A stretch of 64,000 nucleotides of DNA from an uncultured Solirubrobacterales bacterium (GCA_963756655.1 CAVWOQ010000038.1:7178-71177), one strand, 5' to 3'. Shown: positions 13,403 to 57,471, counted from the stretch's first letter. Program-made: numbers and translations. The notes: generated by a model not told the origin, from the sequence alone.

Positions 13403-13426
13403 CGATGTCAGGCAACGGACCGGATC

Positions 13427-13451
13427 GTTAGTCGTCGATCGCAGCGGGTAA
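13427..13451 (+). promoter_or_regulatory. Putative SigB/SigF-type promoter GTTA-N15-GGGTAA
   Basis: 35 nt upstream of the oxidase/bc operon start. Confidence 0.5.
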
Positions 13452-13486
13452 CGGCGAAAAGCCCAGCCCATTCCGGCCCGTCGCGT

Positions 13487-14518
13487 GTGTCAATCCCTGT
13501 TCGTCAACGCCGCCACCGCAACCGGCGACTAGCCGTCGCAGGCGCGACGGCGGCCGCCGGCGCGCTGCTCGCCGGCTGCGGCAAGCAGTCGATCCTCTCG
13601 ACCCACAGCCCGCAGGCGCACAACATCATGCTGCTGTGGTGGTGGATGTTGGGAGCCGCGGTGATCGTGTTCACCGGGGCGGTGGTGATGCTGGTGATCG
13701 CGTACTTGCGCCGGGGAACGGCGGGACTGCCGATCTTCGGCCAGCGCGAGAGCGTCGCCGAAGGGATGGTGCTGGTGTTCGGTCTCGCGATCCCGGTGGT
13801 CGCACTGGTGGCGCTGTTCGGGGTCGCGAACGTGTACCTGATCCGCCAGACGTCGCCGCCAGCACCGGCGAGCACGGCGATGACGATCGACGTGATCGGC
13901 CATCAGTGGTGGTGGGAGGTCCGCTACCCGGGGACCGACGCCGTCACCGCGAATGAGATCCACATCCCGGTCGACACGCGTGTCAACGTCGTGGCGACGA
14001 CCGCCGACGTGATCCACAGCTTCTGGGTACCGGCGCTGAACCGCAAGATCGACATGATCCCCGGGCGCCGCAATCGGATTCTGCTATACGCCTCGAGCCC
14101 GGGCGTCTACCGCGGGCAGTGTTCGCAGTTCTGTGGTCTGCAGCACGCGCACATGGCACTGTACGTGTTCGCGCAGCGACCGCCGCGATATCGAGCGTGG
14201 CTGGCCAACATGGCGTCCGCGGCGAGGGTCCCGATGACTGCCGCGGCGCGGGCCGGCGAGCGGCTGTTCATGGGCAGCCAGTGCGCGAGTTGCCACCGGA
14301 TCGCGGGCACCCCGGCGCAGGGCGACGTCGGCCCCGACCTGACGCACGTCGCGACCCGCACGACCCTGGCCGCGCTGACGATCCCCAACACGCCGAATTG
14401 GCTGGCGGCGTGGATCCGCAACCCGCAGGCGATCAAACCCGGCGACCTGATGCCCGACCTGGGGCTGTCGGCGAGCCAGGTCTCATCGCTGGTCGCGTAC
14501 GTGGAGACCTTGAAGTAG
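13487..14518 (+). CDS. ctaC: Cytochrome c oxidase subunit II with fused C-terminal cytochrome c (caa3 type), lipoprotein
   Basis: Lipobox LLAGC; GHQWWWEVRY; DVIHSFWVP; CuA motif CSQFCGLQHAHM; heme c CASCH; MPDL. Confidence 0.93.
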   Translation: MSIPVRQRRHRNRRLAVAGATAAAGALLAGCGKQSILSTHSPQAHNIMLLWWWMLGAAVIVFTGAVVMLVIAYLRRGTAGLPIFGQRESVAEGMVLVFGLAIPVVALVALFGVANVYLIRQTSPPAPASTAMTIDVIGHQWWWEVRYPGTDAVTANEIHIPVDTRVNVVATTADVIHSFWVPALNRKIDMIPGRRNRILLYASSPGVYRGQCSQFCGLQHAHMALYVFAQRPPRYRAWLANMASAARVPMTAAARAGERLFMGSQCASCHRIAGTPAQGDVGPDLTHVATRTTLAALTIPNTPNWLAAWIRNPQAIKPGDLMPDLGLSASQVSSLVAYVETLK

Positions 14519-20638: not shown

Positions 20639-21519
20639 CCCACCTGGCCGAGTTCATACCGCCGCTTGGCGCAACGTTCCTTTACCTGCTTCTGTACCGC
20701 CGGCGGATGGCGACGCTCGCCGCCGAAGGCCGACCGGTCGCGCCCTGGCGAGTGGCCTCGTTCGTATGTGGCGTCGTGATGGTCGCTGCGGTACAGGTGG
20801 GGCCGTTGGACGGGCTGGCCGACACGCTGCTCGTCGCCCACATGATCCAGCACATCGTGATCGGCGACCTGGCGTCGCTGCTGATCGTGCTGGGGCTGAC
20901 CGGTCCGGTGCTCGCGCCGCTCATGCACACGAAGGCTTCGCGAGCGATGCGACGTCTGTCGCACCCGCTGGTCGCACTCACGCTGTGGGCGATTGATCTA
21001 TATGCCTGGCATCTGCCGCTCTTCTACCAGCTGGCGATCGAGCACGACCTAGTGCACGCCCTTGAGCACGCGTGCCTGCTGTGGTTCGGCTGCCTGCTGT
21101 GGCTGGCGCTAGTCGGCCCCCTCCCGAAACCCAGCTGGTTTTTGGGCTGGTGGAGCCTGGGTTATGTGATCCTGGTCCGGTTCGTCGGCGCCGTGCTCGC
21201 GAACGCACTGATCTGGGCCCAGACCGTCTTCTATCCGGTCTACCGCGCGAGCGACGCCGCGCGGGGACTGAGTCCGCTGTCGGACCAGAATCTGGCCGGC
21301 GGGGTGATGATGGTCGAGCAGGTGCTGCTGACGACGGCGCTGCTGGTCTGGCTGCTGGCCCGTCTGCTGCGCCAGGACGAGGACCGCCAGGGGCTGCTGG
21401 ATCTCGCAGCGAGTCGTGGCTTGCAACTCGACGAGGAACGCGCCGCCCGAGCCGCGCGGGCCGGTGCGACGGCCCGGATGCGCGAGCGGCTGCAGAGCGG
21501 TCCGACCGGACGTCTGTGA
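20635..21519 (+). CDS. ctaG: Cytochrome c oxidase assembly protein CtaG (caa3 type)
   Basis: AHMIQH, YAWHLP, HALEH, DQNLAGGVM. Confidence 0.85.
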   Translation: MTHLAEFIPPLGATFLYLLLYRRRMATLAAEGRPVAPWRVASFVCGVVMVAAVQVGPLDGLADTLLVAHMIQHIVIGDLASLLIVLGLTGPVLAPLMHTKASRAMRRLSHPLVALTLWAIDLYAWHLPLFYQLAIEHDLVHALEHACLLWFGCLLWLALVGPLPKPSWFLGWWSLGYVILVRFVGAVLANALIWAQTVFYPVYRASDAARGLSPLSDQNLAGGVMMVEQVLLTTALLVWLLARLLRQDEDRQGLLDLAASRGLQLDEERAARAARAGATARMRERLQSGPTGRL

Positions 21520-21532
21520 CAGAGGTCACAGT

Positions 21533-21557
21533 GTGACGTTTAGCGCTGACCGGGTAC
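21533..21557 (+). promoter_or_regulatory. Putative SigB/SigF-type promoter GTGA-N15-GGGTAC
   Basis: 10 nt upstream of ATG 21568. Confidence 0.45.
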
Positions 21558-21567
21558 GCCGTAGTAC

Positions 21568-22062
21568 ATGAACTACAACGAACGAACTTCCGGCGGAGTC
21601 ATAGGGAAAGTCGTAGGGAAGGCCAAACGGGTGCTCGGGGTCGCAGCGGACCGCGACCGACTCGCCTGCGAGGGCAGGCTGCAGGAAGCGAAGTCCGAGG
21701 CTGAGCTCGGTGCCCGGCACAGCGCGGAGCGCGCCCGCGAGCGCGAGCGGCGGGCAGCGCTGGACGCGCGGGCGGTGCAGCGCGAAGCGGATCGCACGCG
21801 CCTCGAGAACCGGGTCCTCGCCGATCAACGCGCGGCGGACATCGAGGCGATGTGGCGCCAGGAGAACGCTGACGCAGCTTTGCAGGCAGACCGGCAGCGC
21901 GCCGCCGCCGAATCCGAAGAGCGCGATCAGCACGCGGGCGCCGAGCGGTCGGTCCAGGCGGCGGAGCGGGCGAACGTGGCAGCCGCCGAAGACGCCAACC
22001 AGCTCGAGCGTGAGGCGACCGCGGCCGAGGATCGAGCGCGACGACTCGAGGAGGGCCGATGA
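21568..22062 (+). CDS. CsbD-like N-terminus followed by an A/E/R-rich coiled coil
   Basis: GKVVGKAKRVLG..DRDRLACEGRLQ resembles the CsbD pattern. Confidence 0.65.
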   Translation: MNYNERTSGGVIGKVVGKAKRVLGVAADRDRLACEGRLQEAKSEAELGARHSAERARERERRAALDARAVQREADRTRLENRVLADQRAADIEAMWRQENADAALQADRQRAAAESEERDQHAGAERSVQAAERANVAAAEDANQLEREATAAEDRARRLEEGR

Positions 22063-22688
22063 GCTCACGGACACTCACCACTGCGATGGTTGACCGCTAC
22101 CTGAGGCTGGCCCGCTGGCCCGTCGATCTGGTGACCACGGTGCTTCCCGGCACGCGTACCGGGCCGGGGACGACCGCACGATTGGTCGTCGACCGCGTCG
22201 ACGCGAGCATCCGTGCGACGCTCGCGGCCGTGCTGGGCGACGACTCACTGCGGGCAGACGCGGCACGACGCGACGCGGCCGTAGAGGAGCGAGAGCGCGC
22301 GCTCGACCTGCGCCGTGAGGCCCGTCGCCGCGCCGAGCAGAGCGAGGCTGAGCTTCGCAAACGTCACCAAGAGGCCGGTCGCCGCCGCGAGCGCGCCACC
22401 GCGAAGGCGACGCAGCAGCGGCGAGCCGCGAGTACGAGCCAGGAGCGACGCAAGAGCAACGCATCTCAGGCAGCGCGGCAGCGCGCCAAGATCAGCCAGG
22501 CGCAGCGGACGGCCAACGAGCAGCGAACTCATGAGCAACAAGCGGCGGCGGAGCTGCCGGCCGTAAAGGAGCGGGGAACGGCAGTCCGCGATCGTGAGCT
22601 CGCGGTGCACAAGCGCGACGAGGCCCAGCGTCTGGGCGAGGCGGCCGCGCGTGTGAAGGAGCAGCGCAGGCACGACGACGCTCCCTAG
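22059..22688 (+). CDS. Hypothetical A/R/Q/E-rich coiled-coil protein
   Basis: YLRLARWP..VDRVDASIR..LGDDSLRADA, then a hydrophilic helical tail; ATGA coupling to the previous gene. Confidence 0.65.
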   Translation: MSSRTLTTAMVDRYLRLARWPVDLVTTVLPGTRTGPGTTARLVVDRVDASIRATLAAVLGDDSLRADAARRDAAVEERERALDLRREARRRAEQSEAELRKRHQEAGRRRERATAKATQQRRAASTSQERRKSNASQAARQRAKISQAQRTANEQRTHEQQAAAELPAVKERGTAVRDRELAVHKRDEAQRLGEAAARVKEQRRHDDAP

Positions 22689-22716
22689 GTCCGGCAGTGG
22701 CCTGCCGCCGGGCCAA

Positions 22717-23460
22717 GTGGCGGTATCTTTGGCGCTGATGATGTCCAGCGCTGACCGTCGGCCGGTGGTGTGGAGATGGTCCGGAGCAGCGCTGCTGCCG
22801 CCGGCGGCGTTCGCGGTCCACCAGCTGCGCTTCGTGCTCGCATTCGGCAGTGGCGCGAGCGCTGAGCTGCAGCGCACGGGTCACTCGTATCTGCACTCGG
22901 TGATCCCGTGGCTGGTCGTGCTCGTGGCGCTGGTCGTCGGCATCTTTCTGCTTGCGCTTGGGCGGGCGCTCGCGGGCCAGACTTCGGCCGCCAGGTTCAC
23001 GGTCTCGTTCGCCGGCCTTTGGCTTGCGTGCGCGGCAGCGCTGGTCCTGATCTATTGCGTGCAGGAGTTCCTCGAGGGAGTCTTGGTCGTCGGCCACCCG
23101 GCCGGCCTGGTGGGAATCTTCGGCTACGGAGGCTGGTGGGCGATCCCCGTCGCCGCCTGCATAGGCCTGGTGCTGGCGGCCGTCTTCCACGGCGCCCGCT
23201 GGTTGCTCGACGAGACCGCCGCGCGGCGCCGGGTCGTGGTCGTGCGGCGCACGCCGGTCGCGCAACCTTGCTGGGAAGGCTTCTTCGCACCCGTGCCGGC
23301 CCCGCTGGCGGGCGGCTGGTCGGGACGCGGACCTCCGTGTTCAGGGAGTGGCATCGGCCTGAGTCCCGCGCCGGGACGCGCCGCTGCCAGAACCGGCACA
23401 CCCAGGGCACACCAAGCCGCTATCGACGGCGTCCTGCCGCGTGTGCATCTCCCGCCGTGA
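22717..23460 (+). CDS. His-containing membrane protein with a late RGPP motif (possible arrest-peptide-type leader)
   Basis: AFAVHQLRF, GHSYLHS, GHPAG, VFHG; SGRGPP at 23326-23337; the start may be ATG 22738. Confidence 0.65.
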   Translation: MAVSLALMMSSADRRPVVWRWSGAALLPPAAFAVHQLRFVLAFGSGASAELQRTGHSYLHSVIPWLVVLVALVVGIFLLALGRALAGQTSAARFTVSFAGLWLACAAALVLIYCVQEFLEGVLVVGHPAGLVGIFGYGGWWAIPVAACIGLVLAAVFHGARWLLDETAARRRVVVVRRTPVAQPCWEGFFAPVPAPLAGGWSGRGPPCSGSGIGLSPAPGRAAARTGTPRAHQAAIDGVLPRVHLPP

Positions 23461-23479
23461 GTGAAGGAGTTCCATCCAG

Positions 23480-24463
23480 ATGACAACGAGTGCCGCCGAC
23501 CAACGCCGGCGCACGCTCGGGAGCCGTGCAGACGCCTCACTGATCCCGAGGGCGCGCACATACTTCGCATCCGACAGTCGCGGATCGTGCAAACGGTCCT
23601 GGGAGTGATCTGGCTGCTCGACGGTGCCCTGCAGTTTCAGTCGTTCATGTACGGCAAGGGCTTCATCCATGCTTCTGACGAGCCTGACTGCTGGTCAGCC
23701 CGGCTGGATATCGAGCAGCGTCCACTGGGGCGCCAGAGCCATGCAGAGCGACCAGTTGGTCTTCAACACGCTGGCCGGTTTGACCCAGATCGCGATCGGC
23801 ATCGGGTTCCTCTATCGCCCGACCGTGAAGGTGGCGCTCGCGGTCTCGTTCGCCTGGGCGCTCGTCGTCTGGTGGTTCGGGGAGGCGTTCGGGATGCTGT
23901 TCATGAACATGGCGCAGCCGCTCACAGGCGCACCGGGTGCGGTGCTCCTGTACGCGCTCGCCGGGCTGGTCGTGTGGCCGAACGGACGTCCGGGAGGTCT
24001 GCTGGGCGTCCGCGGCGCGCGCGCCATGTGGCTGGCGCTGTGGCTGGTGATGGCGTGGCTCTGGCTGCTGGCTCCGAGCAGCAGCGCGAACGCGACGTAC
24101 ACATCGATCTACGCCGCTCCATCGGGCATGAGCTGGCTGAGCACGTTGCAGGTCTGGGCCGCCGACGCGGCCAAGGGCAACGGACTGCTGATCGCGATCG
24201 TGCTGGCGTTCGCGTCGGCGGCGATCGGGATCGCGGTCTACCGCAACTGGCACCCGCGGCCGTTCCTGCTGCTCGCCGTCGTTCTGAGTCTCGCGTACTG
24301 GGTCCTCGGCCAGGGCTTCGGCGGCATCTTCATGGGCGGCGCGACGGATCCGAATGCCGGACCGCTGTTCGTCGTGCTCGCGTACGCGATGTACGCGTTG
24401 ATCCCATTCGATAGCCGGGCGGACTCGCCGGGCGTACTGACAGCGAGGTCACAAAGTGCTTGA
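23480..24463 (+). CDS. DoxD/DoxX-like multi-pass membrane protein with internal duplication (frameshifts at about 23582 and 23668)
   Basis: AAGGAG SD 23464-23469 before ATG 23480; LGVIWLLDGALQFQ; repeated WWFGEAFG..TGAPG / YWVLGQGFG..TDPNAGPL. Confidence 0.65.
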
Positions 24464-25082
24464 CAGAACTCAACTTCGCGCCGCGCTGCTGGCCGCGGCG
24501 ACGGTCATGTTGCTCGCGGGTTGCGCGAGTGCCAACAAGACCACTTCGAGCTCGTCGGCCGCCGCCGCGGCCGGATCCGGAAGCATGGCGGGCATGAGCA
24601 GCGGCTCGGGCGCGAGCTCGAACGCCGCGATGGAGGTCGACGGGATCAAACCGATCCCGATCCAGCCGCTCGCCGTCGCGAGCTGGCAGGGGATGAAGAT
24701 CGAGGCGCGGGCGATGACCGCCGTGCCGTTCGTGGTCTTCAACGGGACCAAGGAGCAGATGGTCAAGCCCGGCCCGAAGACGAGCTTTCACCTGATGGTG
24801 ATGCTCAACGACGCCCACACCGGGGTCGCGATCCCGTACGCGAGCGTCTGGGCGACGATCACCCGCGACGGCAAGGTCGTCTACGACGAGCGCCAGTGGC
24901 CGATGCTGTCCGAGTACATGGGCCCTCACTACGGCAACAACGTCGCGCTCCCGGGAGCAGGAACCTACAAGCTCAGCCTGCTGATCAGCCCTCCGGTGTC
25001 GGCCCGGCACCTCGAGTACCAGCACGTGTGGCTGACGCCGCATCGCGTCAGCTCGAGCTTCAACTGGAAGCCGGTCTCGTGA
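24456..25082 (+). CDS. P19/Tpd (FetP)-family metal-binding lipoprotein, Met-substituted variant
   Basis: Lipobox LLAGC; FHLMVM, WPMLSEYMGPHYGNNVALPGAGTYKL..ISPP..ARH. Confidence 0.8.
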   Translation: MLDRTQLRAALLAAATVMLLAGCASANKTTSSSSAAAAAGSGSMAGMSSGSGASSNAAMEVDGIKPIPIQPLAVASWQGMKIEARAMTAVPFVVFNGTKEQMVKPGPKTSFHLMVMLNDAHTGVAIPYASVWATITRDGKVVYDERQWPMLSEYMGPHYGNNVALPGAGTYKLSLLISPPVSARHLEYQHVWLTPHRVSSSFNWKPVS

Positions 25083-26344
25083 CGCCGGAGGGCCCACGGC
25101 GAGGGCTGACCCGCCGCAAGCTGCTGATTGGCGCCGCGTCGGTGGCGGCCGGCGGCGCGGCGGTCGGCGTCGGCCTCGAACAGGCGTCGGGCGGCGCGAG
25201 CGAGCCCGAGATCCCGCGCGTTGCGCTTGGGAGCCAGCCCGCCGGGCTGCCGGCGCGCCAGCACGCCTGGACTGCGACGCTGGCGGTCGACTCTGACGGC
25301 GACTCGATCCCGCCGCGCTTTGACCGGCTCCTGTTGTTCGATGTCAACGGAACACCCACGCCCGCGCACGCGAGGCTGTTGGAAGCGTCACTGAGAACGC
25401 TCGAGCGCCGGTACAAGTGGGGTCCGTCGGGCCTGTTGTTCACGGCCGGCTGGGGGCCGAGCTACTTCGAACGCTTGCTGCGCGTACGGTCCCCGATCCC
25501 GCAGGCCAAGGGCCTGTCGGACTTCGAACTGCCGTCGATCGACGACTACCACCTGTGCCTGCACTTCGCGTGCAACGACGAGCAGCGCCTCGCGGCGATC
25601 GAAGCCGCACTACTGCACGGCGAGCCGCTCCCGGGAGCCGACGGCCCGCTCTCGATCGCCAGCGCGCTGACGTGGCGCGAAACGCGGACCGGCTTCGTCG
25701 GCGTCGGCCTACCGGCCGCGCATCAGCACACCGGCGGGATCCCGGCCGGCGATCCCGTCGCCCCGAGCGCGCCGCTGTTCATGGGCTTCAAGTCGGGCCT
25801 GCGCAAGAACCAGGCGACCGAGGACTTCGTGACGATCCCGGACGGACCGTTCGCCGGCGGCACGACGATGCAGGTCAGCTACATGCGCCTGCGACTCGAC
25901 AGCTGGTACGACGGGCTGAGCTACCGCGAGCGAGTTGCGCGGATGTACGCGCCGCAGGTCACCCCTCAGCAGGTCAAGCACTTCAAGACCGACGCCGAGA
26001 GCGACCCCAAACTGCTCGGCCAGGCGATCAACCACTACGGCGTGATCGGCCACTCGCAGACGTCGGCCCGCGCACGCCGCCACGGCAAGCCGCTGATCAT
26101 CCGCCGCGACTTCAACACCGTCGACGGCGGCCAGGCGGGGCTGCACTTCGTCTCGGTCCAGCGCACGATCGAGGACTTCGTGACGAGCCGCAACGCGATG
26201 AACGCCTCGAACGCGCAGCTCCAGAACCCTGGGATCACCAACACCGTCAACAACGGGATCAACGAATTCATCTTCGTCCTCAAGCGCGCCAACTACATCC
26301 TGCCGCGGCGCGCCGACCGTTCGTTCCCGCTGCTGCGGGCGTGA
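25079..26344 (+). CDS. Tat-exported DyP-type peroxidase-like protein
   Basis: TRRKLL + hydrophobic signal; FMGFKSG, IGHSQ, IIRRDF, GLHFVSVQR, INEFI. Confidence 0.7.
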   Translation: MTPEGPRRGLTRRKLLIGAASVAAGGAAVGVGLEQASGGASEPEIPRVALGSQPAGLPARQHAWTATLAVDSDGDSIPPRFDRLLLFDVNGTPTPAHARLLEASLRTLERRYKWGPSGLLFTAGWGPSYFERLLRVRSPIPQAKGLSDFELPSIDDYHLCLHFACNDEQRLAAIEAALLHGEPLPGADGPLSIASALTWRETRTGFVGVGLPAAHQHTGGIPAGDPVAPSAPLFMGFKSGLRKNQATEDFVTIPDGPFAGGTTMQVSYMRLRLDSWYDGLSYRERVARMYAPQVTPQQVKHFKTDAESDPKLLGQAINHYGVIGHSQTSARARRHGKPLIIRRDFNTVDGGQAGLHFVSVQRTIEDFVTSRNAMNASNAQLQNPGITNTVNNGINEFIFVLKRANYILPRRADRSFPLLRA

Positions 26345-26410
26345 TCAGTTCCAGCTCCCGCGGCGGTCTATGGATATCGACTGCGCAACGCTGGTCCCGC
26401 TGTTGACCGA

Positions 26411-26860
26411 CTACTTCGCCTGGCTCGCGCAGCTCTCGCAGAGCCCGACGATCGCGAAATGCGTGAAGCGGGCCGTGTGGCCGAAGTTGTCCTTGATGTG
26501 TTCGCGGACCGGCGCCAGCTGATCGGGGTCGAGCACCGTGACCTTGCCGCAGCGTTCGCAATAGAGGTACTCGCCGTCGTCGCGTCCGACGAGCGCGTAC
26601 AGGCCCGGCCCGTGCCCGAGGTGGACGTGGCGGATCAGACCATGGCGTTCGAGCACCTCGAGGTTGCGGTAGACAGACGACTCGTCGAGCGTCAGCGTTC
26701 GCGCCAGGTCAGGGGCCGAGACCGGGCCGTCGGTCGCGAACAGCGCCTCGATCACCAGTCGGCGTGGGGTCGACAGGCGCAGCCCAGAGGTGCGCAGCGC
26801 GTCGATCGCCTGATCGGGACTCGAGACCGCCAGCCGCGGCACGTCGGGCGCGATCGTCAC
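26411..26860 (-). CDS. nur: Fur-family regulator, most like nickel-responsive Nur
   Basis: GLRLSTPRRLV, SSVYRNLEVL, HVHLGHG, CERC, THFAIVGLCESC; start overlaps the NiCoT stop. Confidence 0.8.
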   Translation of the reverse strand: MTIAPDVPRLAVSSPDQAIDALRTSGLRLSTPRRLVIEALFATDGPVSAPDLARTLTLDESSVYRNLEVLERHGLIRHVHLGHGPGLYALVGRDDGEYLYCERCGKVTVLDPDQLAPVREHIKDNFGHTARFTHFAIVGLCESCASQAK

Positions 26861-27978
26861 GGCCCGACGCCGGGCTGTTCGAGGTGTGCACTCCAGCGCT
26901 CCTCGATCCGGCCGAGCCTCCACACCGACAGCGCGATCGCCCACGTCGCGACGAACATCCCGACGATCACGAAGCCGAGGACGTTGATGTCGATGTTCTC
27001 GAACCAGTTCCAGAACGAGCCCGACAGGTTGAGCTCCGACGCGAACAGGCCCCCGACCTCGATCGTCCCGATCACGAGCGCGACGGCGACCGATAGGCCC
27101 GTGATCGTGATGTTGTAGAAGACCTTGCGGACCGGCTTCGAAAAGGCCCAGCCGTAGGCGAAGTTCATGAACGAGCCATCGATCGAGTCCATCAGCGACA
27201 TCCCGGCGGCGAACAGGACCGGCAGGCACAGAATCGCGTACCAGGGGAGCCCGGCAGCGCCGGCGCTCCCAGCGATCACGAGCAATGCGACCTCGGTCGC
27301 GGTGTCGAACCCGAGCCCGAATAGGACTCCGATCGGGTACATCTGCTGGGGCTTGGTCACGGTCTTGGTGAGCCGGCCGAAGAAGCGGTTCATCAGCCCG
27401 CGACTGTCGAGCTGGCGCTCGAGCGCCGCCTCGTCGTAGCGGCCGGTCTTCATCTCGCGAAAGACGCGGATGATCCCGAACAGGATCACGATGTTGAGCG
27501 CGGCGATCAGGTAGAGAAACCCGCCGGAGACGCCGGTGCCGATCGAGTTGGTCGTCTGGTGAAGCGTCGAGGTGTCGTTCTTGACCGGGCCGTCGAGCGC
27601 GCGCACGCCGAGCGAGATCAGCAGCGCGAGCGCGAACACGATCGTCGAGTGCCCGAGGGAAAACCAGAACCCGACGCTCATCGGTCGCTTCCCCTCGGCC
27701 ATCAGCTTGCGGGTGGTGTTGTCGATCGCCGAGATGTGGTCGGCGTCAAACGCGTGCCGCAAACCGAGCGTGTACGCCGTGACACCGATCCCGATCGTGA
27801 ACGCGCCGGTTCTGCCGAGGTGGTAGTGGCTCGGAGCGACGACCGCGACCAGAACTACGAAGCCCGCGACGTGCAAAGCGACGACGACGAACGCCATCAT
27901 CATCATGGTCCGGCGCTGGCCGGAGTCGAGCGATCCCCAGAAGGACCTGGTCCTGCTGGCCAGCGAAGCGACCGACAA
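26857..27978 (-). CDS. High-affinity nickel/cobalt permease (NiCoT; HoxN/HupN/NixA family)
   Basis: Signature LRHAFDADHISAID, FSLGHSTIV, LFGLGFDTATE, MDSIDG. Confidence 0.95.
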   Translation of the reverse strand: MSVASLASRTRSFWGSLDSGQRRTMMMMAFVVVALHVAGFVVLVAVVAPSHYHLGRTGAFTIGIGVTAYTLGLRHAFDADHISAIDNTTRKLMAEGKRPMSVGFWFSLGHSTIVFALALLISLGVRALDGPVKNDTSTLHQTTNSIGTGVSGGFLYLIAALNIVILFGIIRVFREMKTGRYDEAALERQLDSRGLMNRFFGRLTKTVTKPQQMYPIGVLFGLGFDTATEVALLVIAGSAGAAGLPWYAILCLPVLFAAGMSLMDSIDGSFMNFAYGWAFSKPVRKVFYNITITGLSVAVALVIGTIEVGGLFASELNLSGSFWNWFENIDINVLGFVIVGMFVATWAIALSVWRLGRIEERWSAHLEQPGVGP

Positions 27979-38258: not shown

Positions 38259-38388
38259 CGGTTAGGGCGCAGCCTATGGAAAGGCGGCCGGGTCGGGTTA
38301 ACCCCACCGCGAAAGCCGGGGGCCAGCGCGAGTGCGAACTCCCGCGCGCTCCAGCGACGCGGAGCTTCGCGGGCGCGAGGCTGCGGTC

Positions 38389-40611
38389 ATGTCAATCAAA
38401 GCTCCACACACCCCACCGTCCGGCCGGCACGCCGACGCCGGACTGCTCGCGCGAGTCGTGCGAGTCGCGGCCAGCGCTTCGGCGCGCCGCCCGAAGACGA
38501 CGGTCGCATTCTGGTTCGCGCTGATCACGGCGTGCGTCGCGCTCGGCACCCTGAGCGGGATGCGCACGCTGAGCAACTCGGGCTCCGGGACGGGCGAGTC
38601 GGCCCGTGCCGACGCCAGGCTGGCGGCCTCGGGCCTCACGGGGCCGACGACCGAAGACGTGCTGGTCCGCTCGCCGAGCGCGGCGCGGACGGCGGCCGCC
38701 GTCGCGACCTTGGAGGCCGGAGCGCGGCGACTGCCCGACACGCTCAGGGTTCAGGGACCTCAGAGCTCGCCCGAGCTGTCACGCGACGGTGGCCGCACGG
38801 CGCTGGTGGTCGCCTCGTTGCGTGGCGACACCTCGCAATCGGACGCCGGCGCGGCACGGCTCGAGCGATTGGTTTCATCGCTGTCGAGCCGCGACCGCGG
38901 CGTCAGCATGGTCGAGGCGGGGGCCGGCTCGGGCGACAACGCGATCAACCAGCTGGTCTCGAGCAGCCTGCACCGCGCGGAGCTGATCTCGATCCCGATC
39001 ACGCTGCTGATCCTCGTGCTCGCGTTCGGTGCGTTGGTCGCCGCGTCGGTGCCGCTGCTGCTGGGCCTGACTTCGGTCGGTGCGGCGCTGGGCGCGCTCG
39101 GGCTGGTGTCCCAGATCGCACCCGACGGCTCCTCGACGGCGCCGGTCGTCGTCCTGATCGGCCTCGCGGTCGGGGTTGACTACTCGCTGTTCTACATCCG
39201 GCGTGAGCGCGCCGAGCGCCGCGCAGGCGCGAGCGTCGAGGCGGCGCTGGCGGCCACGTCGGCGACCGTCGGGCGCGCGATCCTGGTCGCCGGTGCGACC
39301 GTCGTGATCGGGCTCGCCGGGCTCCTGTTCACCGGCGTCGGCGTGTTCACGTCGATGGCGTTGGGGGCGATCCTGGTGGTCGCGATCGCGGTCGTAGGCT
39401 CGCTGACGGTGCTGCCGGCGATGCTGACGCTGCTGGGCGACCGGGTCGACCGAGGCCGGCTCTGGGCCCGCCGCCCGCGCCGCCGTCGCACGGTCTGGCA
39501 GCTCCTGGCGACGGCTGTGACCGGACGACCCCGGGTCGCGCTGGTCGGCTCGCTGCTGCTGCTCGCGGTGCTCGCCATCCCGGTGCTCTCGATCCAGACC
39601 GCCGAGCCGGGCGAGAACGACGTCCCGGCCAACACGCCGATCCGCGTCGCCGAGCGCGCGATCAATCACGCCTTCCCGGGCTCTGGGGACACAGCCGATC
39701 TGGTCGTCAGCGGCCGGCGGCTCGGACGGCCACGGGCGCTCGCGCAGTTGCGGGCGATCGGCGAGCGAGGGCTCGCGATCACCGGCGGCCGCGGGACCGT
39801 GGCGCTCGAGGTCTCACGCGACGGCGGGACCGCGCAGCTCCAGATCCCGATCCCCGACAGCAGCCTCAGCGTCGCCAACGATCGAGTGCTGGCGTTGCGC
39901 CGGCAGCTCGAGCCGGCCGTCGCGAGCGCGATCCCGGGGGCTCGGGCAGCGCTGACCGGTGACTACGCCGGCAACCTCGACTTCTCGAGCCGTCTGTCGA
40001 GCGTCACGCCGATCGTGATCGCGTTCGTCCTTGGCCTGGCGTTCATCCTGCTGGTGGCGACCTTCGGCTCGCCGCTGCTGGCGCTGTCGGTGATCGGCCT
40101 GAACCTGATGTCGGTCGGAGCCGCGTTCGGCGTGCTGGTCGCGGTCTTCCAATACGGCTGGGGCCAGTCGCTGCTCGGTTTCCAGTCAGACGGCGCGGTC
40201 GTCGAGTGGCTCCCACTGTTCGCGTTCGTCGTGCTGTTCGGCCTCTCGATGGACTACACGGTGCTGGTGCTGGAGCGGGCTCGCGAGGCGCGACGCGCGG
40301 GCGCCGGCGCCAGGCAGGCGGCGGCCGAGGCGCTGAGCTCGACGGGTGGCACGGTGACGAGCGCCGCGGTCGTGATGATCGCCGTGTTCTCCGTGTTCGC
40401 GACGCTACCGCTGCTCGAGTTCAAGCAGCTCGGCGTCGGTCTGGCCGCGGCGATCGCGCTTGACGCGACGCTCGTGCGGGGTGTCGCGCTGCCGGCCGTG
40501 GTCACGTTGCTCGGCGATCGCGGCCTGGCGCCGAGCCGGGCGCGCGGTGCGCGCGTGCCGGACTGGGATCATGGTGTCCATGTCGCAGCGCTCGGGTCGA
40601 GCCATGACTAA
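38389..40611 (+). CDS. MMPL/RND family transporter
   Basis: LAFGALVAA, AVGVDYSLFY, FGLSMDY, LDATLVRGVALPA. Confidence 0.92.
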   Translation: MSIKAPHTPPSGRHADAGLLARVVRVAASASARRPKTTVAFWFALITACVALGTLSGMRTLSNSGSGTGESARADARLAASGLTGPTTEDVLVRSPSAARTAAAVATLEAGARRLPDTLRVQGPQSSPELSRDGGRTALVVASLRGDTSQSDAGAARLERLVSSLSSRDRGVSMVEAGAGSGDNAINQLVSSSLHRAELISIPITLLILVLAFGALVAASVPLLLGLTSVGAALGALGLVSQIAPDGSSTAPVVVLIGLAVGVDYSLFYIRRERAERRAGASVEAALAATSATVGRAILVAGATVVIGLAGLLFTGVGVFTSMALGAILVVAIAVVGSLTVLPAMLTLLGDRVDRGRLWARRPRRRRTVWQLLATAVTGRPRVALVGSLLLLAVLAIPVLSIQTAEPGENDVPANTPIRVAERAINHAFPGSGDTADLVVSGRRLGRPRALAQLRAIGERGLAITGGRGTVALEVSRDGGTAQLQIPIPDSSLSVANDRVLALRRQLEPAVASAIPGARAALTGDYAGNLDFSSRLSSVTPIVIAFVLGLAFILLVATFGSPLLALSVIGLNLMSVGAAFGVLVAVFQYGWGQSLLGFQSDGAVVEWLPLFAFVVLFGLSMDYTVLVLERAREARRAGAGARQAAAEALSSTGGTVTSAAVVMIAVFSVFATLPLLEFKQLGVGLAAAIALDATLVRGVALPAVVTLLGDRGLAPSRARGARVPDWDHGVHVAALGSSHD

Positions 40612-41602
40612 CAGCTCCGAGCAGCGGTCGGCGCTGCAGCGGGCGGTGGTGACGCCGCCCGCTGTCCTGTGCGTGTCGCTCGTGATCATCTGGCTGTTCA
40701 CCGGCGCGGGTTACTTCTGGCCGATGTGGGCCGTGCTGGGGATCGCGATCCCGACCGGGCTGTGGGTGGCTTGGCGGTGGGCGAAGACGCAGCCGGGTGG
40801 CACGAGCCGCCGCTACGCGATCCACGCGGGCGTCTCCTGCGTCCTCGCCGCGACGGTGATCGCGGTCTGGGCGATGGCGGGTGCCGGCAACTTCTGGCCG
40901 ATCTACCCGCTCGTCGGGTTAGGCGCCCTGCTCGCGCTGCACCGCGCGTTCCTGGGTCCTGGCCAGCGCTCGCTGCAGATCCGGGTTGACGAACTGACCC
41001 GGACCCGCAGCGGGGCGCTCGACGTGCAGGCATCGGAGCTGCGGCGGATCGAGCGCGACCTGCACGACGGGGCGCAGGCACGGCTGGTGGCGCTCAGCAT
41101 GCAGCTCGGTCGCGCCGAAGAGCGGCTCGCCGACCACCCGGAGAGCGCCGCGCTGGTCCGCAGCGCTCGGGAGGAGGCGACTGCCGCGATCGCCGAACTG
41201 CGCGATCTGGCGCGCGGGATCGCCCCGCCGGTCCTGGCCGACCGCGGGCTCGTCGCCGCCGTGCAGTCGCTCGCCAACCGCTCGAGCGCGGTCGTCGAGG
41301 TCAAGGGCGAGCTCGCACGCCGGCCGCCGCCGGTGGTCGAGGCGGCCGCCTACTTCGTGGTCGCCGAGTCGCTCACCAACGTCGTCAAGCACGCCCCGGG
41401 AGCGGCCGCCCGGGTGACCGTCAGCCAGGACGGCGCGATGCTCGTCGTCGAGGTCGCCGACAACGGCCCCGGGGGCGCCGTTCCGTCCGGCGGCGGACTG
41501 ACCGGGCTGCGCCAGCGTGTCGAGGCGCTCGACGGCCGGCTCGACGTCCACAGCGTCAAGGGCGAAGGGACCGTCGTCTGGGCCGTGCTGCCGTGCGAGT
41601 AG
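40604..41602 (+). CDS. Sensor histidine kinase (HisKA_3 type)
   Basis: RIERDLHDGAQARL, ESLTNVVKHA, VADNGPGG, GLTGLRQRV. Confidence 0.93.
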   Translation: MTNSSEQRSALQRAVVTPPAVLCVSLVIIWLFTGAGYFWPMWAVLGIAIPTGLWVAWRWAKTQPGGTSRRYAIHAGVSCVLAATVIAVWAMAGAGNFWPIYPLVGLGALLALHRAFLGPGQRSLQIRVDELTRTRSGALDVQASELRRIERDLHDGAQARLVALSMQLGRAEERLADHPESAALVRSAREEATAAIAELRDLARGIAPPVLADRGLVAAVQSLANRSSAVVEVKGELARRPPPVVEAAAYFVVAESLTNVVKHAPGAAARVTVSQDGAMLVVEVADNGPGGAVPSGGGLTGLRQRVEALDGRLDVHSVKGEGTVVWAVLPCE

Positions 41603-52852: not shown

Positions 52853-54499
52853 TCATTGAGTTCGCAGCTTGCGGTAGCGCCGAATCAGCGCGTTAGTCGA
52901 ACTGTCGTGCTGCAGGTCCGGATCGTCGACGGATTCGAGCTCCGGGATGATCCGCTTCGCCAGCACCTTGCCCAGCTCGACGCCCCACTGGTCAAACGAG
53001 TTGATGTTCCAGATCGTGCCCTGGGTGAAGACGCTGTGCTCGTAGAGCGCCACCAGCGCCCCGAGCGTGCGCGGCGTCAACCGCTCGGCAAGGATCACGT
53101 TCGTCGGCCGGTTGCCCTCGAACACCCGGTGCGGAACGACCGCCTCGGGCGTGCCCTCCGCGCGGACCTCCTGGGCTGTCTTGCCGAACGCGAGCGCCTC
53201 GGCCTGCGCGAACACGTTTGACATCAGCAGGTCCTGATGGTCGCGGATCGGGTTGAGGTTCTTGCCGAACCCGATCAGGTCGACCGGGATCAGCTTCGTG
53301 CCCTGGTGGATCAGCTGGTAGAAGCTGTGCTGGCCGTTGGTGCCCGGCTCGCCCCAGTAGACGGCCCCGGTCTGGTAGTTGACCTCGGTCCCGTCGAGCC
53401 TCACGTACTTGCCGTTGGACTCCATCGTCAGCTGCTGCAGGTATGCGGGAAACCTCTTCAGATACTGGCTGTAGGGCATCACGCCGACCGTCTGGGCGAG
53501 GAAGAAGTCGCCGTACCAGACCGCCAGCAACCCCATCAGGACCGGGAGGTTGCGCTCGAACGGCGTCGTCCGGAAGTGGACGTCGATCTCGTGGAAGCCG
53601 GCCAGCAGCTCGCGGAAGCCGTCGGGCCCGACCGCCAGCATCGTCGACAGGCCGATCGCCGAGTCCATCGAGTAGCGGCCCCCGACCCAGTCCCAGAAAC
53701 CGAACATGTTCTGGGTATCGATCCCGAAGCTCGCCACCTCGCGCTCGTTGGTCGAGACCGCGACGAAGTGCCTGGCGACCGCCGACTCGTCGCCCAGCGC
53801 CGCCAGCGCCCAGTCGCGGGCCGTGTGCGCGTTGGTCATCGTCTCGAGCGTCGTGAACGTCTTCGAGGAGACGATGAACAGCGTCTCCTCGGCGTCGAGG
53901 TCGCGGGTCGCCTCGGCGAAGTCGGTCGAGTCGACGTTCGAGACGAAGCGGAAGGTCAGGTCGCGCCGCGTGTAGTGGCGCAGCGCCTCATAGGCCATCA
54001 CCGGTCCGAGGTCGGAGCCACCGATACCGATGTTGACGACGTTGCGGATCGGCTTGCCGGTGTGGCCCTTCCAGTCGCCCGACCGGACGCGGTCGGCGAA
54101 CGCGGACATCCGATCCAGAACCTCGTGCACCTCGGCGACCACGTCGACGCCGTCGACCACCAGCGACTCGCCCTTCGGCATCCGCAGCGCGACGTGCAGG
54201 ACGGAGCGGTTCTCGGTCGTGTTGATCCTGTCGCCGCGGAACATCGCGTCGATCCGCTCGCGCAGCGCCGACTCCTCGGCCAGCTTGAGCAGCAGCGCGA
54301 CCGTCTCGTCGGTGATCCGGTTCTTCGAATAATCGAGGTACAGCCCGGCCGCCTCCGCCGTCAGACGCTTGCCCCTGGCCGGGTCGTCGGCGAACAGTTC
54401 GCGCAGGTGAACGGGCTCGAGTTCGGCGTGGTGCTTCTTCAGCGCCTGCCAGGCCGCCCGATCGCGGAGGGGGGTCATGGTCGTTTCGCTCGTGCTCAT
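52853..54499 (-). CDS. pgi: Glucose-6-phosphate isomerase
   Basis: [55 protein letters not shown]. Confidence 0.97.
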
Positions 54500-55407
54500 C
54501 GAGACACCTCCGGTCGACTGGTCAGTGCGGGCGCCGCGACGATCTCGGTTGCGACCGCTCGAGCGCCGTGACGACCAAACGCGATCGTATAGTGGTTGCA
54601 GTCCGGGACCTGGCTCGCGCGGCGCCGGTCGGGATCCGCCGCCGCCCACTCCTCGACGAGCGCCAAAGGCTGCATCGGGTGGGGGTCATCGACCATCCCG
54701 CGCGGAGCGCACAGCAGCATCGCGGGGAGCGCGAGGGAGTGCGCGTCGTCGACCGCGAACAGATCGATTCCATCGACGCGGACCGATTCCGGATTGACCG
54801 ACGAATGAAGCTCGGGCGGCTCGCCCTCGAGATCGTGGTCGGCGTATTCGGCGAGCTCGTCGGGATCGACGTCGGAGTGGGCGAACGCCGGGTGCTGAGC
54901 CCACCACGCCCGGTAGTCCTCCCAGTCTGGGAACGTCATCTGCAGGCGCGCGAGCGCCGGTCCCAGAAACGCCTCGAGGAACCGCTCAGGGTCGGCACCG
55001 TCGCTCGCGGGGATCGTCAGCCCGCCGTCGACCAGGACCAGGCTGGCGACGCGATCCGGTTGCGCGGTGGCGAGCGCGGCCGCGATGTAGGCCCCGAGTG
55101 AGTGGCCGACGACCACGGCGCTTCGAAGGCCGAAGTGATCGAGCACGGCGGCCATGTCGCGCACGTGCGCGGGGATTCCGAACGGCCCGGGGAGCCGGCT
55201 GCTGCGCCCGCGCCCGCGCAGATCGACCGCGATCAGCGCCGCCGAGTCGCCCAGCGCCTTGCCGATCGCGAGCCACGAGCGACTGCTCGAGGTGATGCCG
55301 TGGATCGCGAGCGCGACAGGCGCCTCGGGACGCAGACTGCCGAGCCTGAAGGTCGCGAGCGTCCCGCCCTCGACCGGCACATCGACCCGCGCGGCGAGGT
55401 CAGTCAC
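54496..55407 (-). CDS. Alpha/beta hydrolase
   Basis: IHGITSS, DLRGRG, GHSLG, NHYTI. Confidence 0.88.
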
Positions 55408-56335
55408 GGGCGAGCGCTTCATCGGGCGCGGGCTCGGCGAGCTCCTCGGGTTCGACGTGCTCGGCGGTCGCCGCGAACGGACGCGCGTACACCAGCCAAG
55501 CGACCGCGCCCGCGAGCAGCATTGCGCACAGGATCCAGCCGAGCGCCGTGGTCCCGACGCCGACGTACTTGAGGCCCGAGGCGAAGATCACGAACGCGAT
55601 CCCCGGGCGGATGTAGCGGTCTGGGACGGTCGAAGACAGCAGCGACCCGACAAGCACCCCGGGCACACTGCCGAGGATCAGCGAGCCGGTCACCGACAAC
55701 TCGACGTGGCCGAACGCCAGCGCGCCGAGCGCCGCGGCGAGCGTCAGCGGAACGGCCTGCGTGAGGTCGGTTCCGACGAGCTGGTTGGCGCCGAGCATCG
55801 GGTAGACGAACAGCAGTCCGACGATCATCAGCGAGCCTGATCCGACCGAGGTCATGCCGACGATCAGCCCGCCGATGATCCCGATCGCGAGCGTCGGCAG
55901 CGGACGGGTGTGGACATCGGCGACGAATGCCGTCCGGGCGTGGCCACGGTGGCGGTCGAGCGCGAATCGCAGCGCCATCGCCCCGGCGCCGATCAGCAAT
56001 GCGGCTCCGAGGAACACCTCGATCGTGCTCTCGGCCGACTTGGCGTCGCCCATCAGATGGAGCAGGTATGCGCCGAGGAACGCGGCCGGCACAGAGCCGA
56101 GCACCATCCACCGCACGAGCTTGAGGTTGACCGTCCCAGCCCGCATGTGCACGGCGGCTCCGATCGGCCGCATCACGACCGCGGCGACGAGGTCGCTCGA
56201 GATCGCCGTCGACGGCGTGATCCCGAACAGCAGGATCAGCATCGGCGTCATCAGCGCGCCCCCACCGGCGCCGGTCATGCCAACGAGCAGGCCGACGACC
56301 GCGCTGCCGAGGACGATGTAGGGGTCAATGTGCAT
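55400..56335 (-). CDS. Sulfite exporter TauE/SafE family (TSUP)
   Basis: GMTGAGGGALMTP, GMTSVGSGSL, LVGTDL. Confidence 0.92.
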   Translation of the reverse strand: MHIDPYIVLGSAVVGLLVGMTGAGGGALMTPMLILLFGITPSTAISSDLVAAVVMRPIGAAVHMRAGTVNLKLVRWMVLGSVPAAFLGAYLLHLMGDAKSAESTIEVFLGAALLIGAGAMALRFALDRHRGHARTAFVADVHTRPLPTLAIGIIGGLIVGMTSVGSGSLMIVGLLFVYPMLGANQLVGTDLTQAVPLTLAAALGALAFGHVELSVTGSLILGSVPGVLVGSLLSSTVPDRYIRPGIAFVIFASGLKYVGVGTTALGWILCAMLLAGAVAWLVYARPFAATAEHVEPEELAEPAPDEALARD

Positions 56336-56339
56336 GTCG

Positions 56340-57392
56340 TCAGCGGGCGGCGGCCGTCCCGACCACGGGCGCGGCTTCGACGGCCAGCTTGTGGAGCGCG
56401 TCGGCGACCTCGGCCGGGCGCTCGATCGGCGACATGTGGCCGGTCCGTTCGAGCTCGATCAGCCCCGCCGGACGGGGCAGCGTGTCGGCGATCCGCCTCG
56501 CGTGCGCCGGCGGCGTCAGGCGATCGTCGCTGCCGGCGATCACGAGCGTCGGCACCGTGATCCGCGCCACCGCCCGCCACAGATCCATGTGCGAGATCGC
56601 GATCCCGGTCGCGGCCCGCACCTTGGGCGGGCACTCGATCAGCATCCGCTCGTAGAACGCCACCTGACCGGCGGTGGCATCCGGTCCGAACGCGATGTGA
56701 CGGATCAGCGTGTGCGCGAGCGGGGACGAGAACGAGGGCAGAGGAGCGCGCGACCCCATCATCAGGCGACCGACGAACGGGCTGCTGAAGCGTGCCGTGA
56801 GGCCACCGAGCAGCAGCTGGCCGCTGACGAGGTCGCCGAGGCCTGTGTTGAGCATCGCGGCGGCCCGCGCGCGGCGCTCGACCTCGTGGCGCTCCGCCCA
56901 GGCGGCGATCGACATCGCGCCGAGCGAATGGCCGGCGATCACCGCGCGCTGTCCGTCGCCGACGACGGCGGCCAGCACCGCTTCGAGGTCATCGCCGTAG
57001 CGAGCGAGCGAATAGTCGCCGCCGGCGGCGGGCCCGCTGCGGCCGTGACCGCGCAGGTCGTAGGCCACAAGACGGCATCCCCGCCCGCGCAGGAGCCTGA
57101 TCACCGGCCGCCAGAACGACAGCTGCTCAGTCCAGCCGTGGACGAGAAGCACTACGGCCTGGTCGTCGGCGCCGAACGACTCAACGTGCAGATCGGTGCC
57201 GTCGCTTGACCGGACCGGCAGCACGTCGCCGTCGAGCGGGGCGGTCAGACGCACGTACTCGGGATCGCGCGCGATCGAATGCGCGTGCCGGCGCTGGAGC
57301 GCGATTCCGGCGCCCGCCCCGACGGCGGCCGCCGAGAGCGTCAGCGCGCGTCCGGTCAGCCTGCGCCTGCGCTCAGGGGTCTCGGAAGCCAT
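56340..57392 (-). CDS. Alpha/beta hydrolase with N-terminal anchor
   Basis: VHGWTE, YDLRGHGRS, GHSLG, GSDDRLTP, GHMSPIE. Confidence 0.88.
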   Translation of the reverse strand: MASETPERRRRLTGRALTLSAAAVGAGAGIALQRRHAHSIARDPEYVRLTAPLDGDVLPVRSSDGTDLHVESFGADDQAVVLLVHGWTEQLSFWRPVIRLLRGRGCRLVAYDLRGHGRSGPAAGGDYSLARYGDDLEAVLAAVVGDGQRAVIAGHSLGAMSIAAWAERHEVERRARAAAMLNTGLGDLVSGQLLLGGLTARFSSPFVGRLMMGSRAPLPSFSSPLAHTLIRHIAFGPDATAGQVAFYERMLIECPPKVRAATGIAISHMDLWRAVARITVPTLVIAGSDDRLTPPAHARRIADTLPRPAGLIELERTGHMSPIERPAEVADALHKLAVEAAPVVGTAAAR

Positions 57393-57471
57393 CGCGCAAG
57401 AACCGTACATGCCCCCCGGGTGGGGGTGATCCCGGGGCCGCGTCGATCGGGGGCTACGCTGCCACGTAGGA

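Follow-up and report, generated by a model that had tools for sequence, protein, structure and literature searches.

A candidate extracytoplasmic copper relay of soil Solirubrobacterales built on a Met-substituted P19-fold lipoprotein and an Asp-less DyP-fold protein

The stretch of DNA considered here, 64,000 nucleotides from an uncultured Solirubrobacterales bacterium (GCA_963756655.1 CAVWOQ010000038.1:7178-71177; the whole stretch is called the window), contains an operon of four plus-strand genes at 22717-26344 that is probably an unstudied route by which copper is supplied to respiratory enzymes. The genes, designated g1 to g4, encode two membrane proteins of unnamed families, a lipoprotein with the P19 fold, and a protein with the fold of dye-decolorizing peroxidases (DyPs) that is predicted to be exported by the twin-arginine translocation (Tat) pathway. 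Sequence and comparative analyses suggest, with a probability of about 0.6, that the operon relays copper and performs redox chemistry outside the cytoplasmic membrane, as a module that feeds the assembly of cuproenzymes. No paper or curated family was found that names any of the four proteins, and a literature search on DUF7405 and DUF7350, the families of g4 and g3, on HVO_0163 neighbors, and on a copper role of P19-like or FetP-like proteins of this type found no description.

The P19-fold lipoprotein and its DyP-fold partner

The g3 product matches the Pfam families Iron_transport (PF10634; 37.8 bits against a cut-off of 21, E 2.7e-9) and DUF7350 (PF24041; 34.9 bits against a cut-off of 27, E 1.9e-8), which its homologues carry jointly, and it also matches solved structures of FtrA, FetP and P19 by sequence, FtrA (8vv5) at E 2.9e-8 in a single-sequence search and 3.3e-9 in a profile search, and FetP (3nrp) at E ~3e-6. 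Its lipobox, LLAGC with Cys23, is invariant across the actinobacterial family and, together with the signal peptide, predicts a lipoprotein located outside the cytoplasm. Residues 43-50 form a Met-rich linker, SMAGM(N/S)(M/S)G, which reads S-M-A-G-M-N-M-G in most relatives. Homologues are labeled 'iron transporter' or 'Fe2+ transport protein' in databases.

The copper site of P19 is presumably composed of His42, Met88, His95 and His132 (P19 numbering), and alignment to FtrA and FetP finds the equivalent residues H112, M150, H158 and H185 retained in g3, with M150 and H158 lying in the segment W-P-M-x-S-x-Y-M-G-P-H-Y-G; these positions are conserved in 63-70 of the 72 P19-like domains encoded next to DUF7405 genes. 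The P19 motifs His-x-Glu and M-x3-D-x2-H can be seen in these alignments. About 7 Å from its copper, P19 possesses an acidic Mn/Fe patch consisting of Glu3, Glu44, Asp46 and Asp92 (PMC9174327). In the same alignment E44, D46 and D92 are replaced by M114, M116 and M155 of g3, such that the FtrA motif H-L-E-A-D corresponds to H112-L-M114-V-M116 (nt 24789-24803) and the Asp that precedes G-P-H corresponds to M155 (nt 24919-24921). Met occurs at position 114 in 67 of the 72 domains and at position 155 in 63, and neither position is Glu or Asp in any of them (0/72); as judged by alignment, the Met substitution of the P19 iron patch is a family trait. Because carboxylates have given way to thioethers and a Met-rich linker is present, g3 appears suited to Cu(I), bound beside or in alternation with a His-rich Cu(II) site. 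The Met pattern is also found in the N-terminal domains of tandem haloarchaeal P19-like proteins. Such two-domain proteins (haloarchaeal L080, L083 and L084, and bacterial P0130) have the arrangement H-x-M ... M ... M-G-x-H in the first domain and a degenerate one, Y-A ... T ... L-H-H, in the second.

The g4 product (residues counted from nt 25070) belongs to Pfam DUF7405 (PF24152; 327.8 bits, E 9e-98), a family with only 408 clusters (50% identity) in a set of 1.8 billion representative proteins. Its match to Dyp_perox_C, 16.4 bits, falls under the cut-off of 20, and a single-sequence search of the PDB gave no significant match, with EfeB reaching a whole-sequence E of 1.5. An AlphaFold (AF2) model based on 24 diverse members (predicted local distance difference test score, pLDDT, 83.6; predicted template modeling score 0.83) is the source of the fold assignment: the top 50 Foldseek matches are all DyPs, at 14-19% identity, with a best E of 4.8e-16 and target-normalized template modeling (TM) scores of 0.55-0.73, and the best of them include VcDyP, DtpB, encapsulin DyPs, Bacillus subtilis EfeB, and DtpAa. 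Candidates for the proximal His, H328 (nt 26051-26053; V-G-H-x-Q-K), and for the distal Arg, R345/R346 (nt 26102-26107; I-L-R-R-D-F), are invariant in 24 diverse DUF7405 members, and a profile search of the PDB aligns H328 and R345 with the proximal-His/distal-Arg segment of Shewanella TyrA (2hag), whose motifs we take to be the DyP proximal-His (SH-I/V-xR) and distal-Arg (LR) motifs. Binding of heme by g4 is predicted from these alignments and the model.

Two segments of g4 are candidates for the GXXDG motif of DyPs, RTGFVG211VG and FMGFKS242G (S242, nt 25793-25795), and the Asp is present in neither, family-wide. HMMER aligns G-F-V-D-G of TyrA to R-T-G-F-V-G211-V-G, and F-G-F-K-D-G-T-G-N-Q-S-T-E-D of B. 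subtilis EfeB matches M-G-F-K-S242-G-L-R-K-N-Q-A-T-E-D of g4; the spacing to the next strand favors the S242 alignment over that of G211. E251 and W279 are invariant in the family alignment. Export by the Tat pathway is predicted from the twin-arginine motif T14-R-R-K-L-L at residues 14-19 (nt 25109-25126), in which R16 is nearly invariant, and many archaeal members add a lipobox. Database labels of g4 homologues range from 'hypothetical' to 'Tat pathway signal protein' and 'dye decolorizing peroxidase'. An earlier note, made from the sequence of the window, had singled out a Met-substituted P19 and a DyP without its Asp; both descriptions hold, the first as a trait of the family and the second under either alignment.

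Related loci and their neighboring genes

A scan of one genome per species, covering 185,579 species, found 284 relatives of DUF7405. The locus counts given here refer to the best 80 of these 284, from 76 metagenome-assembled genomes (MAGs) of Actinomycetota (mostly Solirubrobacterales) and 4 haloarchaeal isolates, and to neighbors within 7 kb of the DUF7405 gene. A P19-like gene accompanies DUF7405 in 57/80 loci, in most of them directly upstream on the same strand, and in a 47%-identity member from an unrelated metagenome the P19-like gene is kept with a 4-nt overlap. A SCO1/SenC gene, whose product carries the Sco-type CxxxC with a downstream His, is present in 34/80; a CopC-CopD-YtkA fusion and a DUF1775 (YcnI) gene are each found in 8/80, g2 in 29/80, and g1 in 27/80, the last mostly upstream and on the same strand. 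At least one of the Sco, CopCD and YcnI genes is present in 34 of the 57 loci with a P19-like gene versus 3 of the 23 without (Fisher p 1.6e-4, phylogeny ignored). Two complete co-oriented arrangements are seen, Sco - g1 - P19-like - DUF7405 - YcnI - CopC/CopD/YtkA in locus L085 and Sco+redoxin - g1 - g2 - P19-like - DUF7405 in locus L086. The 29 loci with g2 and the 8 with CopCD do not overlap, and g2 appears to alternate with YcnI/CopCD, an equivalence drawn solely from this mutually exclusive occurrence. Flanking genes outside the cluster are otherwise not conserved, and the association of the pair has therefore outlived rearrangement.

In the neighborhoods of Met-type P19 homologues, whose inspection the earlier note had called for, the genes that recur beside the pair with DUF7405 are Sco, YcnI and CopCD. 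By a motif test alone, no open reading frame (ORF) of the FTR1 type (two RExxE and at least 4 hydrophobic helices) was found in the window or in the fetched loci (84+), and no ORF with the PCuAC motif (H..M..H.M) in any locus. Neither a CopA-type ATPase, a CsoR/CopY regulator, CopZ, nor a multicopper oxidase emerged among the conserved neighbor clusters.

Haloarchaeal P19-like and Tat DyP-like pairs, which the earlier note had mentioned, do exist, in clusters ordered DUF7282 - DUF7471 - ArsR-type regulator - tandem DUF7350 - DUF7405. There the mature end of DUF7282, a PGF-CTERM protein, begins with AHVNH, the regulator is of the HVO_0163 type, and a zf-AN1/CAP protein is also present. DUF7405 genes that have no P19 partner are paired with a divergently transcribed gene for a lipoprotein of the PF03640/SCO0930 type (L027, L043, L045, L052, L053, L055, L058, L060, L064, L076, L082), often together with a secreted protein of about 550 aa that has no family assignment, and some genomes hold both types of locus. 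Three further neighbor clusters recur with Sco near the pair, namely c9 (a lipoprotein of ~220 aa), c11 (~355 aa, an N-terminal outside domain followed by helices), and c14 (a domain of ~230 aa that is also found fused to the N-terminus of Sco), in L012, L019, L021-L023, L039, L042, L044, L051, L053, L061 and L078. No Pfam or NCBIfam match was found for any of the three, which may be additional unrecognized copper-assembly factors.

The identity of the neighbors bears on what the operon is for. Copper detoxification, in which g3 would sequester periplasmic Cu(I) via its Met residues, g4 would oxidize Cu(I) to the less toxic Cu(II) like a cuprous oxidase, and g1 and g2 would be accessory, is an unlikely role. 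Resistance proteins of the CopC/PcoC and CusF types have Met-rich motifs and a His/Met site, as does g3, and CopC and CopD were first named as resistance proteins. However, the recurrent partner Sco is an oxidase-assembly chaperone, the YcnI/YcnJ-type pair is linked to copper import, the ATPase, regulators, CopZ and multicopper oxidase listed above are missing from the conserved neighbor clusters, and in the window's lineage the unit follows cta, qcr and ctaG genes.

Still less probable is a divergent iron uptake system of the EfeUOB, FetMP or FtrABCD kind, in which g3 would bind iron beside its copper site, g4 would oxidize Fe(II) or extract iron from heme, and g2 would be a new permease in place of FTR1. 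Such a system would fit the score of g3 above the Pfam Iron_transport threshold and the 'iron transporter' labels of its homologues, the likeness of the g4 motifs to those of EfeB-type DyPs (NQATED after the GXXDG-like motif), and the Fur-family regulator that adjoins the operon. Yet throughout the family Met stands in place of each of the three carboxylates of the P19 iron site that can be aligned, the FTR1 permease is found by motif in none of the 84+ loci, the recurring neighbors are copper genes (Sco, YcnI, CopCD) rather than iron genes, and the Fur-family gene is convergent with the operon, paired with a NicO gene, and missing from the closest relative. The earlier note's proposal of an undescribed copper-handling rather than iron-uptake system draws support from the family-wide Met substitutions, from the lack of an FTR1 permease by the motif test, from the enrichment of Sco, YcnI and CopCD, from locus L085, and from the lack of any paper or family naming the proteins.

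The membrane proteins and the genomic setting

The nearest kin of the window (68% G+C) are soil MAGs of Solirubrobacteraceae and Solirubrobacterales. As the earlier note had described, the four genes are co-oriented and the last three overlap, by 8 nt between the stop of g2 (24461-24463) and the GTG start of g3 (24456), and by 4 nt where the stop of g3 and the start of g4 share GTGA (25079-25082). The coordinates of the operon and its surroundings are collected in Table 1.

Table 1. Positions in the window of the operon genes and of features around them
Feature	Position	Strand	Description
g1	22738-23362	+	~207-aa membrane protein with four transmembrane (TM) helices, unnamed family; alternative in-frame GTG start at 22717
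g2	23480-24463	+	327-aa, ~eight-helix membrane protein with two homologous four-helix halves, unnamed family
g3	24456-25082	+	208-aa P19-fold lipoprotein, Pfam DUF7350 / Iron_transport
g4	25079-26344	+	421-aa predicted Tat-exported DyP-fold protein, Pfam DUF7405
ctaC, ctaD, ctaE, qcrC, qcrA, qcrB	upstream of operon	+	
Oxidase subunit II gene	13403-14518		
ctaG	ends 21519, ~1.2 kb upstream	+	Caa3_CtaG (PF09678)
CsbD-like gene and gene for a charged protein	21568-22688		between ctaG and g1; second product 209 aa, highly charged (Arg/Glu/Ala-rich), without family
Fur-family gene and NicO gene	26411-27978	-	NicO is a nickel/cobalt transporter; convergent with g4

The reading frames of g1 and g2 had to be corrected for errors in the assembly, with the help of a contig from another assembly (L004) that is 98.3% identical to the window. 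Compared with this contig, the window has single-base insertions or deletions (indels) at 23343, 23579 and 23670, and the contig has its own, different ones at 24186, 25417 and 25506; because the two differ by such separate single-base changes, the pattern is long-read assembly noise. Contigs of four independent soil metagenome runs aligned to 23250-24300, all contigs covering the sites being considered, drop a base at ~23340/23343, add one at 23579/23581, and drop one at 23670/23672. In the window, the extra base at ~23340-23343 hides the true stop of g1, TGA at 23360-23362, and falsely prolongs the gene to 23460 (an uncorrected ORF of 247 aa), and g2 appears as two ORFs in different frames, beginning at 23461 and 23624, because a base is lacking at 23579 and a T is in excess at 23670. 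Since L004 and the four independent runs restore both frames, the indels are private to the window's assembly and a pseudogene reading of g2 and of the long g1 is ruled out. Further indel sites of the window lie at 23420-23425 and 23470; other long ORFs of the window also overlap in split frames (for example 38302-41602 and 52853-57818) and may share the same assembly problem.

The corrected g1 product ends in GGWSGRGPPCSGVASA, followed by the stop. An alignment of 23 members shows the motifs HQLR, GHSYLH, QExLEG, GHPxG and GGWW to be kept, and the positive-inside rule predicts that the His/Glu motifs face outward. Also conserved is the extreme C-terminal motif GWSGRGPP (window 23326-23340), which varies with the partner at the locus: it is GWSGRGPP beside g2 and (C/S/A)AAGRAPP in 5/5 CopCD-linked loci aligned. 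Because the motif covaries with g2 versus CopCD, the tail is suggested to contact the membrane partner. Of the 'RGPP leader' described in the earlier note, the C-terminal GRGPP motif is therefore real, and the protein that bears it is not a leader but a four-TM membrane protein. No Pfam or NCBIfam match was found for g1, and the idea that it is a third copy of the g2 repeat was rejected when hhalign found no relation between them.

The corrected g2 product is 94% identical to an intact database homologue, P0391, of the same 327 aa. Comparison with hhalign shows homology between the two halves (probability 95.6%, E 1.1e-8, 112 columns), and the resulting layout of 4+4 helices in ~140-aa repeats fits a tandem DoxX-like protein without being diagnostic of one. 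There is no Pfam match at E<0.01 and no NCBIfam match to corrected g2; 120 homologues likewise lack Pfam domains, and their database label is 'hypothetical protein'. A DoxX_3 match is found in 2/24 family members at a non-significant E of 0.11. The AF2 model has a pLDDT of 69, and a fold search with it gave no significant PDB match; coherent Foldseek matches were confined to the membrane domain by which gamma-glutamyl carboxylase, GGCX, binds vitamin K (probability at most 0.99, query-normalized TM score, TMq, 0.42-0.49, E non-significant), a domain that Pfam presumably places in the DoxD-like clan. Thus the duplication claimed by the earlier note is borne out, and the 'DoxD-like' label attached to it is unproven. 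The weak DoxX_3 and GGCX signals, the latter coherent, are what invites a quinone-linked extracytoplasmic redox module with a non-metal substrate, such as thiol or peroxide handling around oxidase assembly, in which g2 would be a DoxX/HTTM-like quinone subunit, g4 an H2O2-removing heme peroxidase, and the Sco-like neighbors (which also score as AhpC-TSA/Redoxin, one having an extra redoxin domain) thiol-disulfide oxidoreductases, but this is improbable, since the two signals are non-significant (E 0.1-1), the Sco homologues have the Sco-type CxxxC and downstream His rather than CxxC, and a P19 fold with a copper site and Met substitutions, as well as YcnI/CopCD neighbors, would be left unexplained.

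Upstream of the operon lie the genes of a Cu-requiring oxidase, as the earlier note had reported, and the position of ctaG agrees with the distance of about 1.2 kb given there. The CuA motif of ctaC is CSQFCGLQHAHM. In oxidase subunit II the CuA motif C-S-Q-F-C-G-L-Q-H-A-H-M has Gln where most oxidases have Glu, and the presence of a C-terminal cytochrome c domain (CASCH) makes it caa3-type. The 272-aa ORF listed for the Fur-family regulator is probably too long, as the gene is called at 148 aa in the near-identical contig. No FTR1/EfeU permease or ABC transporter had been noticed in the window, and a motif check for FTR1-like ORFs (two RExxE plus TM helices) and ABC-ATPase signatures likewise found none there.

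How much of this setting belongs to the operon can be judged from other genomes. The closest relative (L002, L003 and L063; 88-92% identity) keeps qcr-ctaG followed by g3-g4, and lacks both the CsbD-like pair and the NicO/Fur pair; the latter is found in L004 and L037 and not in L002/L003. Adjacency of CtaG is seen in only ~7 loci. On these grounds neither the cta neighborhood nor the NiCoT/Fur pair counts as a conserved feature of the unit, and the NiCoT/Fur and CsbD-like neighbors were rejected as parts of it. The adjacencies that the earlier note used as an argument are present in the window, but they are specific to the lineage.

No relevant regulatory RNA or leader was found with Rfam in 21000-27500, and scans for promoters and terminators found nothing above chance; a weak hairpin with a T-rich tail lies at 22702-22723, between the gene for the 209-aa charged protein and g1. 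Soil and rhizosphere metatranscriptome contigs from two studies match g3 in the region 24621-25181, and one of them (25008-25181) spans the g3/g4 junction with one mismatch. These contigs hint at expression in situ and at co-transcription of g3 and g4, evidence that is weak since DNA carry-over is possible.

The proposed copper relay compared with known systems

In the copper relay favored here, g3 would capture copper outside the membrane and could bind it in either of two environments, one rich in His and of the Cu(II) type, the other rich in Met and of the Cu(I) type, by the same His/Met logic as CopC/PcoC and PCuAC-type chaperones, and g4, a cofactor-type Tat substrate that is the obligate and translationally coupled neighbor of g3, would be the redox partner that sets the oxidation state of the copper, as has been proposed for DtpA. 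The g1 and g2 proteins would fill the slot of YcnI and CopC-CopD in the sister loci, or sit alongside them, and would serve either to transport copper through the membrane or to link the module with the quinone pool. Sco-type chaperones and the machinery of oxidase assembly would then receive the copper for client cuproenzymes, above all the heme-copper oxidase encoded just upstream. The P19-like g3 would thereby act in the role of PCuAC/ECuC or CtaK, and DUF7405 in that of DtpA. What the analysis shows is gene content, residue patterns, folds, export signals and co-occurrence; within the scheme we infer the binding of copper and the specificity for it, the binding of heme, the direction in which electrons and metal move, and the oxidase as a client enzyme.

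The nearest precedents are extracytoplasmic copper-trafficking clusters, the sco operon of Streptomyces lividans and Cg1884/Cg1883 of Corynebacterium glutamicum (PMC4736821; PMC9145763). The S. lividans cluster is arranged sco-ecuc-SLI_4212-dtpA. For its DtpA, a conversion of Cu(I) to Cu(II) has been proposed; the protein is needed for copper-dependent maturation of GlxA, and oxidase activity falls in a dtpA mutant (PMC4736821). That unrelated proteins can do the same job beside Sco in oxidase assembly is illustrated by PCuAC and CtaK (PMC9145763). The parts of the S. lividans operon, a Sco, a small copper-binding lipoprotein, a CopC/CopD-type membrane protein, and a Tat-exported DyP-fold heme protein, recur in the same composition in sister locus L085. 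In contrast to S. lividans, the small putative copper protein here has the P19 fold (DUF7350) rather than the PCuAC/ECuC fold, g4 belongs to a separate Pfam family (DUF7405), with low identity to solved DyPs and no distal Asp, two unnamed membrane proteins are added, and Sco and CopCD are missing from the 64 kb of the window. A Sco-linked copper-trafficking cluster with a DyP-fold protein is thus of a known kind; its components are new.

Other systems share single parts with the operon. With the P19-cFtr1, FetMP and FtrABCD systems, g3 has in common its fold, its PF10634 family, the His/Met/His/His copper site and a predicted extracytoplasmic location; it differs from P19, FetP and FtrA in having Met in place of the acidic patch, in being a lipoprotein with a Met-rich linker, and in its DyP-fold partner, and an FTR1/FetM permease is found by motif test in no locus. 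As in EfeUOB (EfeB/YwbN), a gene for a Tat-exported DyP-fold protein adjoins genes for a periplasmic metal-binding protein and a membrane protein, and the motif after the GXXDG position of g4, FGFKDGTGNQSTED, resembles that of B. subtilis EfeB, MGFKSGLRKNQATED; unlike EfeUOB, the operon has no EfeU (FTR1), no EfeO (cupredoxin/M75) and no distal Asp, and the whole-sequence similarity to EfeB is not significant. Genes of the type of the B. subtilis copper acquisition proteins YcnJ (a CopC-CopD fusion) and YcnI (DUF1775) follow DUF7405 immediately in several sister loci, whereas g1 and g2 have no detectable sequence similarity to CopC, CopD or DUF1775.

Several points weigh against a copper relay. 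All of the evidence for a copper role is genomic and comparative; Met-rich sites can also serve copper detoxification, and it is uncertain what peroxidase-type chemistry g4 could perform without the distal Asp. The Fisher statistic treats MAGs that are mostly of Solirubrobacterales as independent and ignores their shared ancestry, 23 of the 57 loci with a P19-like gene have no known copper gene within 7 kb, and the haloarchaeal clusters contain no named copper gene, their genes being DUFs and an ArsR-type regulator. The 64 kb of the window hold no Sco, CopCD or YcnI. Finally, the closest relative has a deletion of ~1.3 kb corresponding to window 22871-24196, which leaves codons 1-54 of g1 and codons 253-327 of g2; because it has lost most of both genes and yet keeps g3-g4, g1 and g2 are, by this comparison, dispensable for g3-g4 function, although they may instead be replaced elsewhere in its genome.

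A more far-reaching version of the relay can be put forward tentatively, as somewhat doubtful overall. A P19-fold family once engaged in copper-assisted iron handling would have become a chaperone dedicated to Cu(I)/Cu(II) that, with the Asp-less DyP-fold heme protein, forms an unrecognized pathway of cuproenzyme maturation common to soil Actinomycetota and haloarchaea. This pathway would replace PCuAC/CtaK as the partner of Sco, and the membrane unit of g1 and g2, possibly quinone-coupled, would substitute for YcnI and CopC-CopD.

The copper loading of respiratory oxidases is known for few model organisms, and its helpers, Sco, PCuAC, CtaK, CopC/CopD, YcnI and CtaG, are distributed patchily across phyla. 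The operon is a testable candidate for the missing copper helper in Solirubrobacterales, a dominant and almost uncultured group of soil Actinomycetota, and the core pair is also present in cultivable haloarchaea, where genetics is feasible. The iron-transport labels borne by g3 homologues are probably errors, which distort conclusions on metabolism drawn from soil metagenomes. If the copper relay proves true, it would provide a clear case of a switch in metal specificity on a fixed fold, from a Glu/Asp iron site to a Met copper site, and a physiological role for a DyP-fold protein without the canonical catalytic Asp, and would at once give functions to DUF7350, DUF7405 and two unnamed families of membrane proteins.

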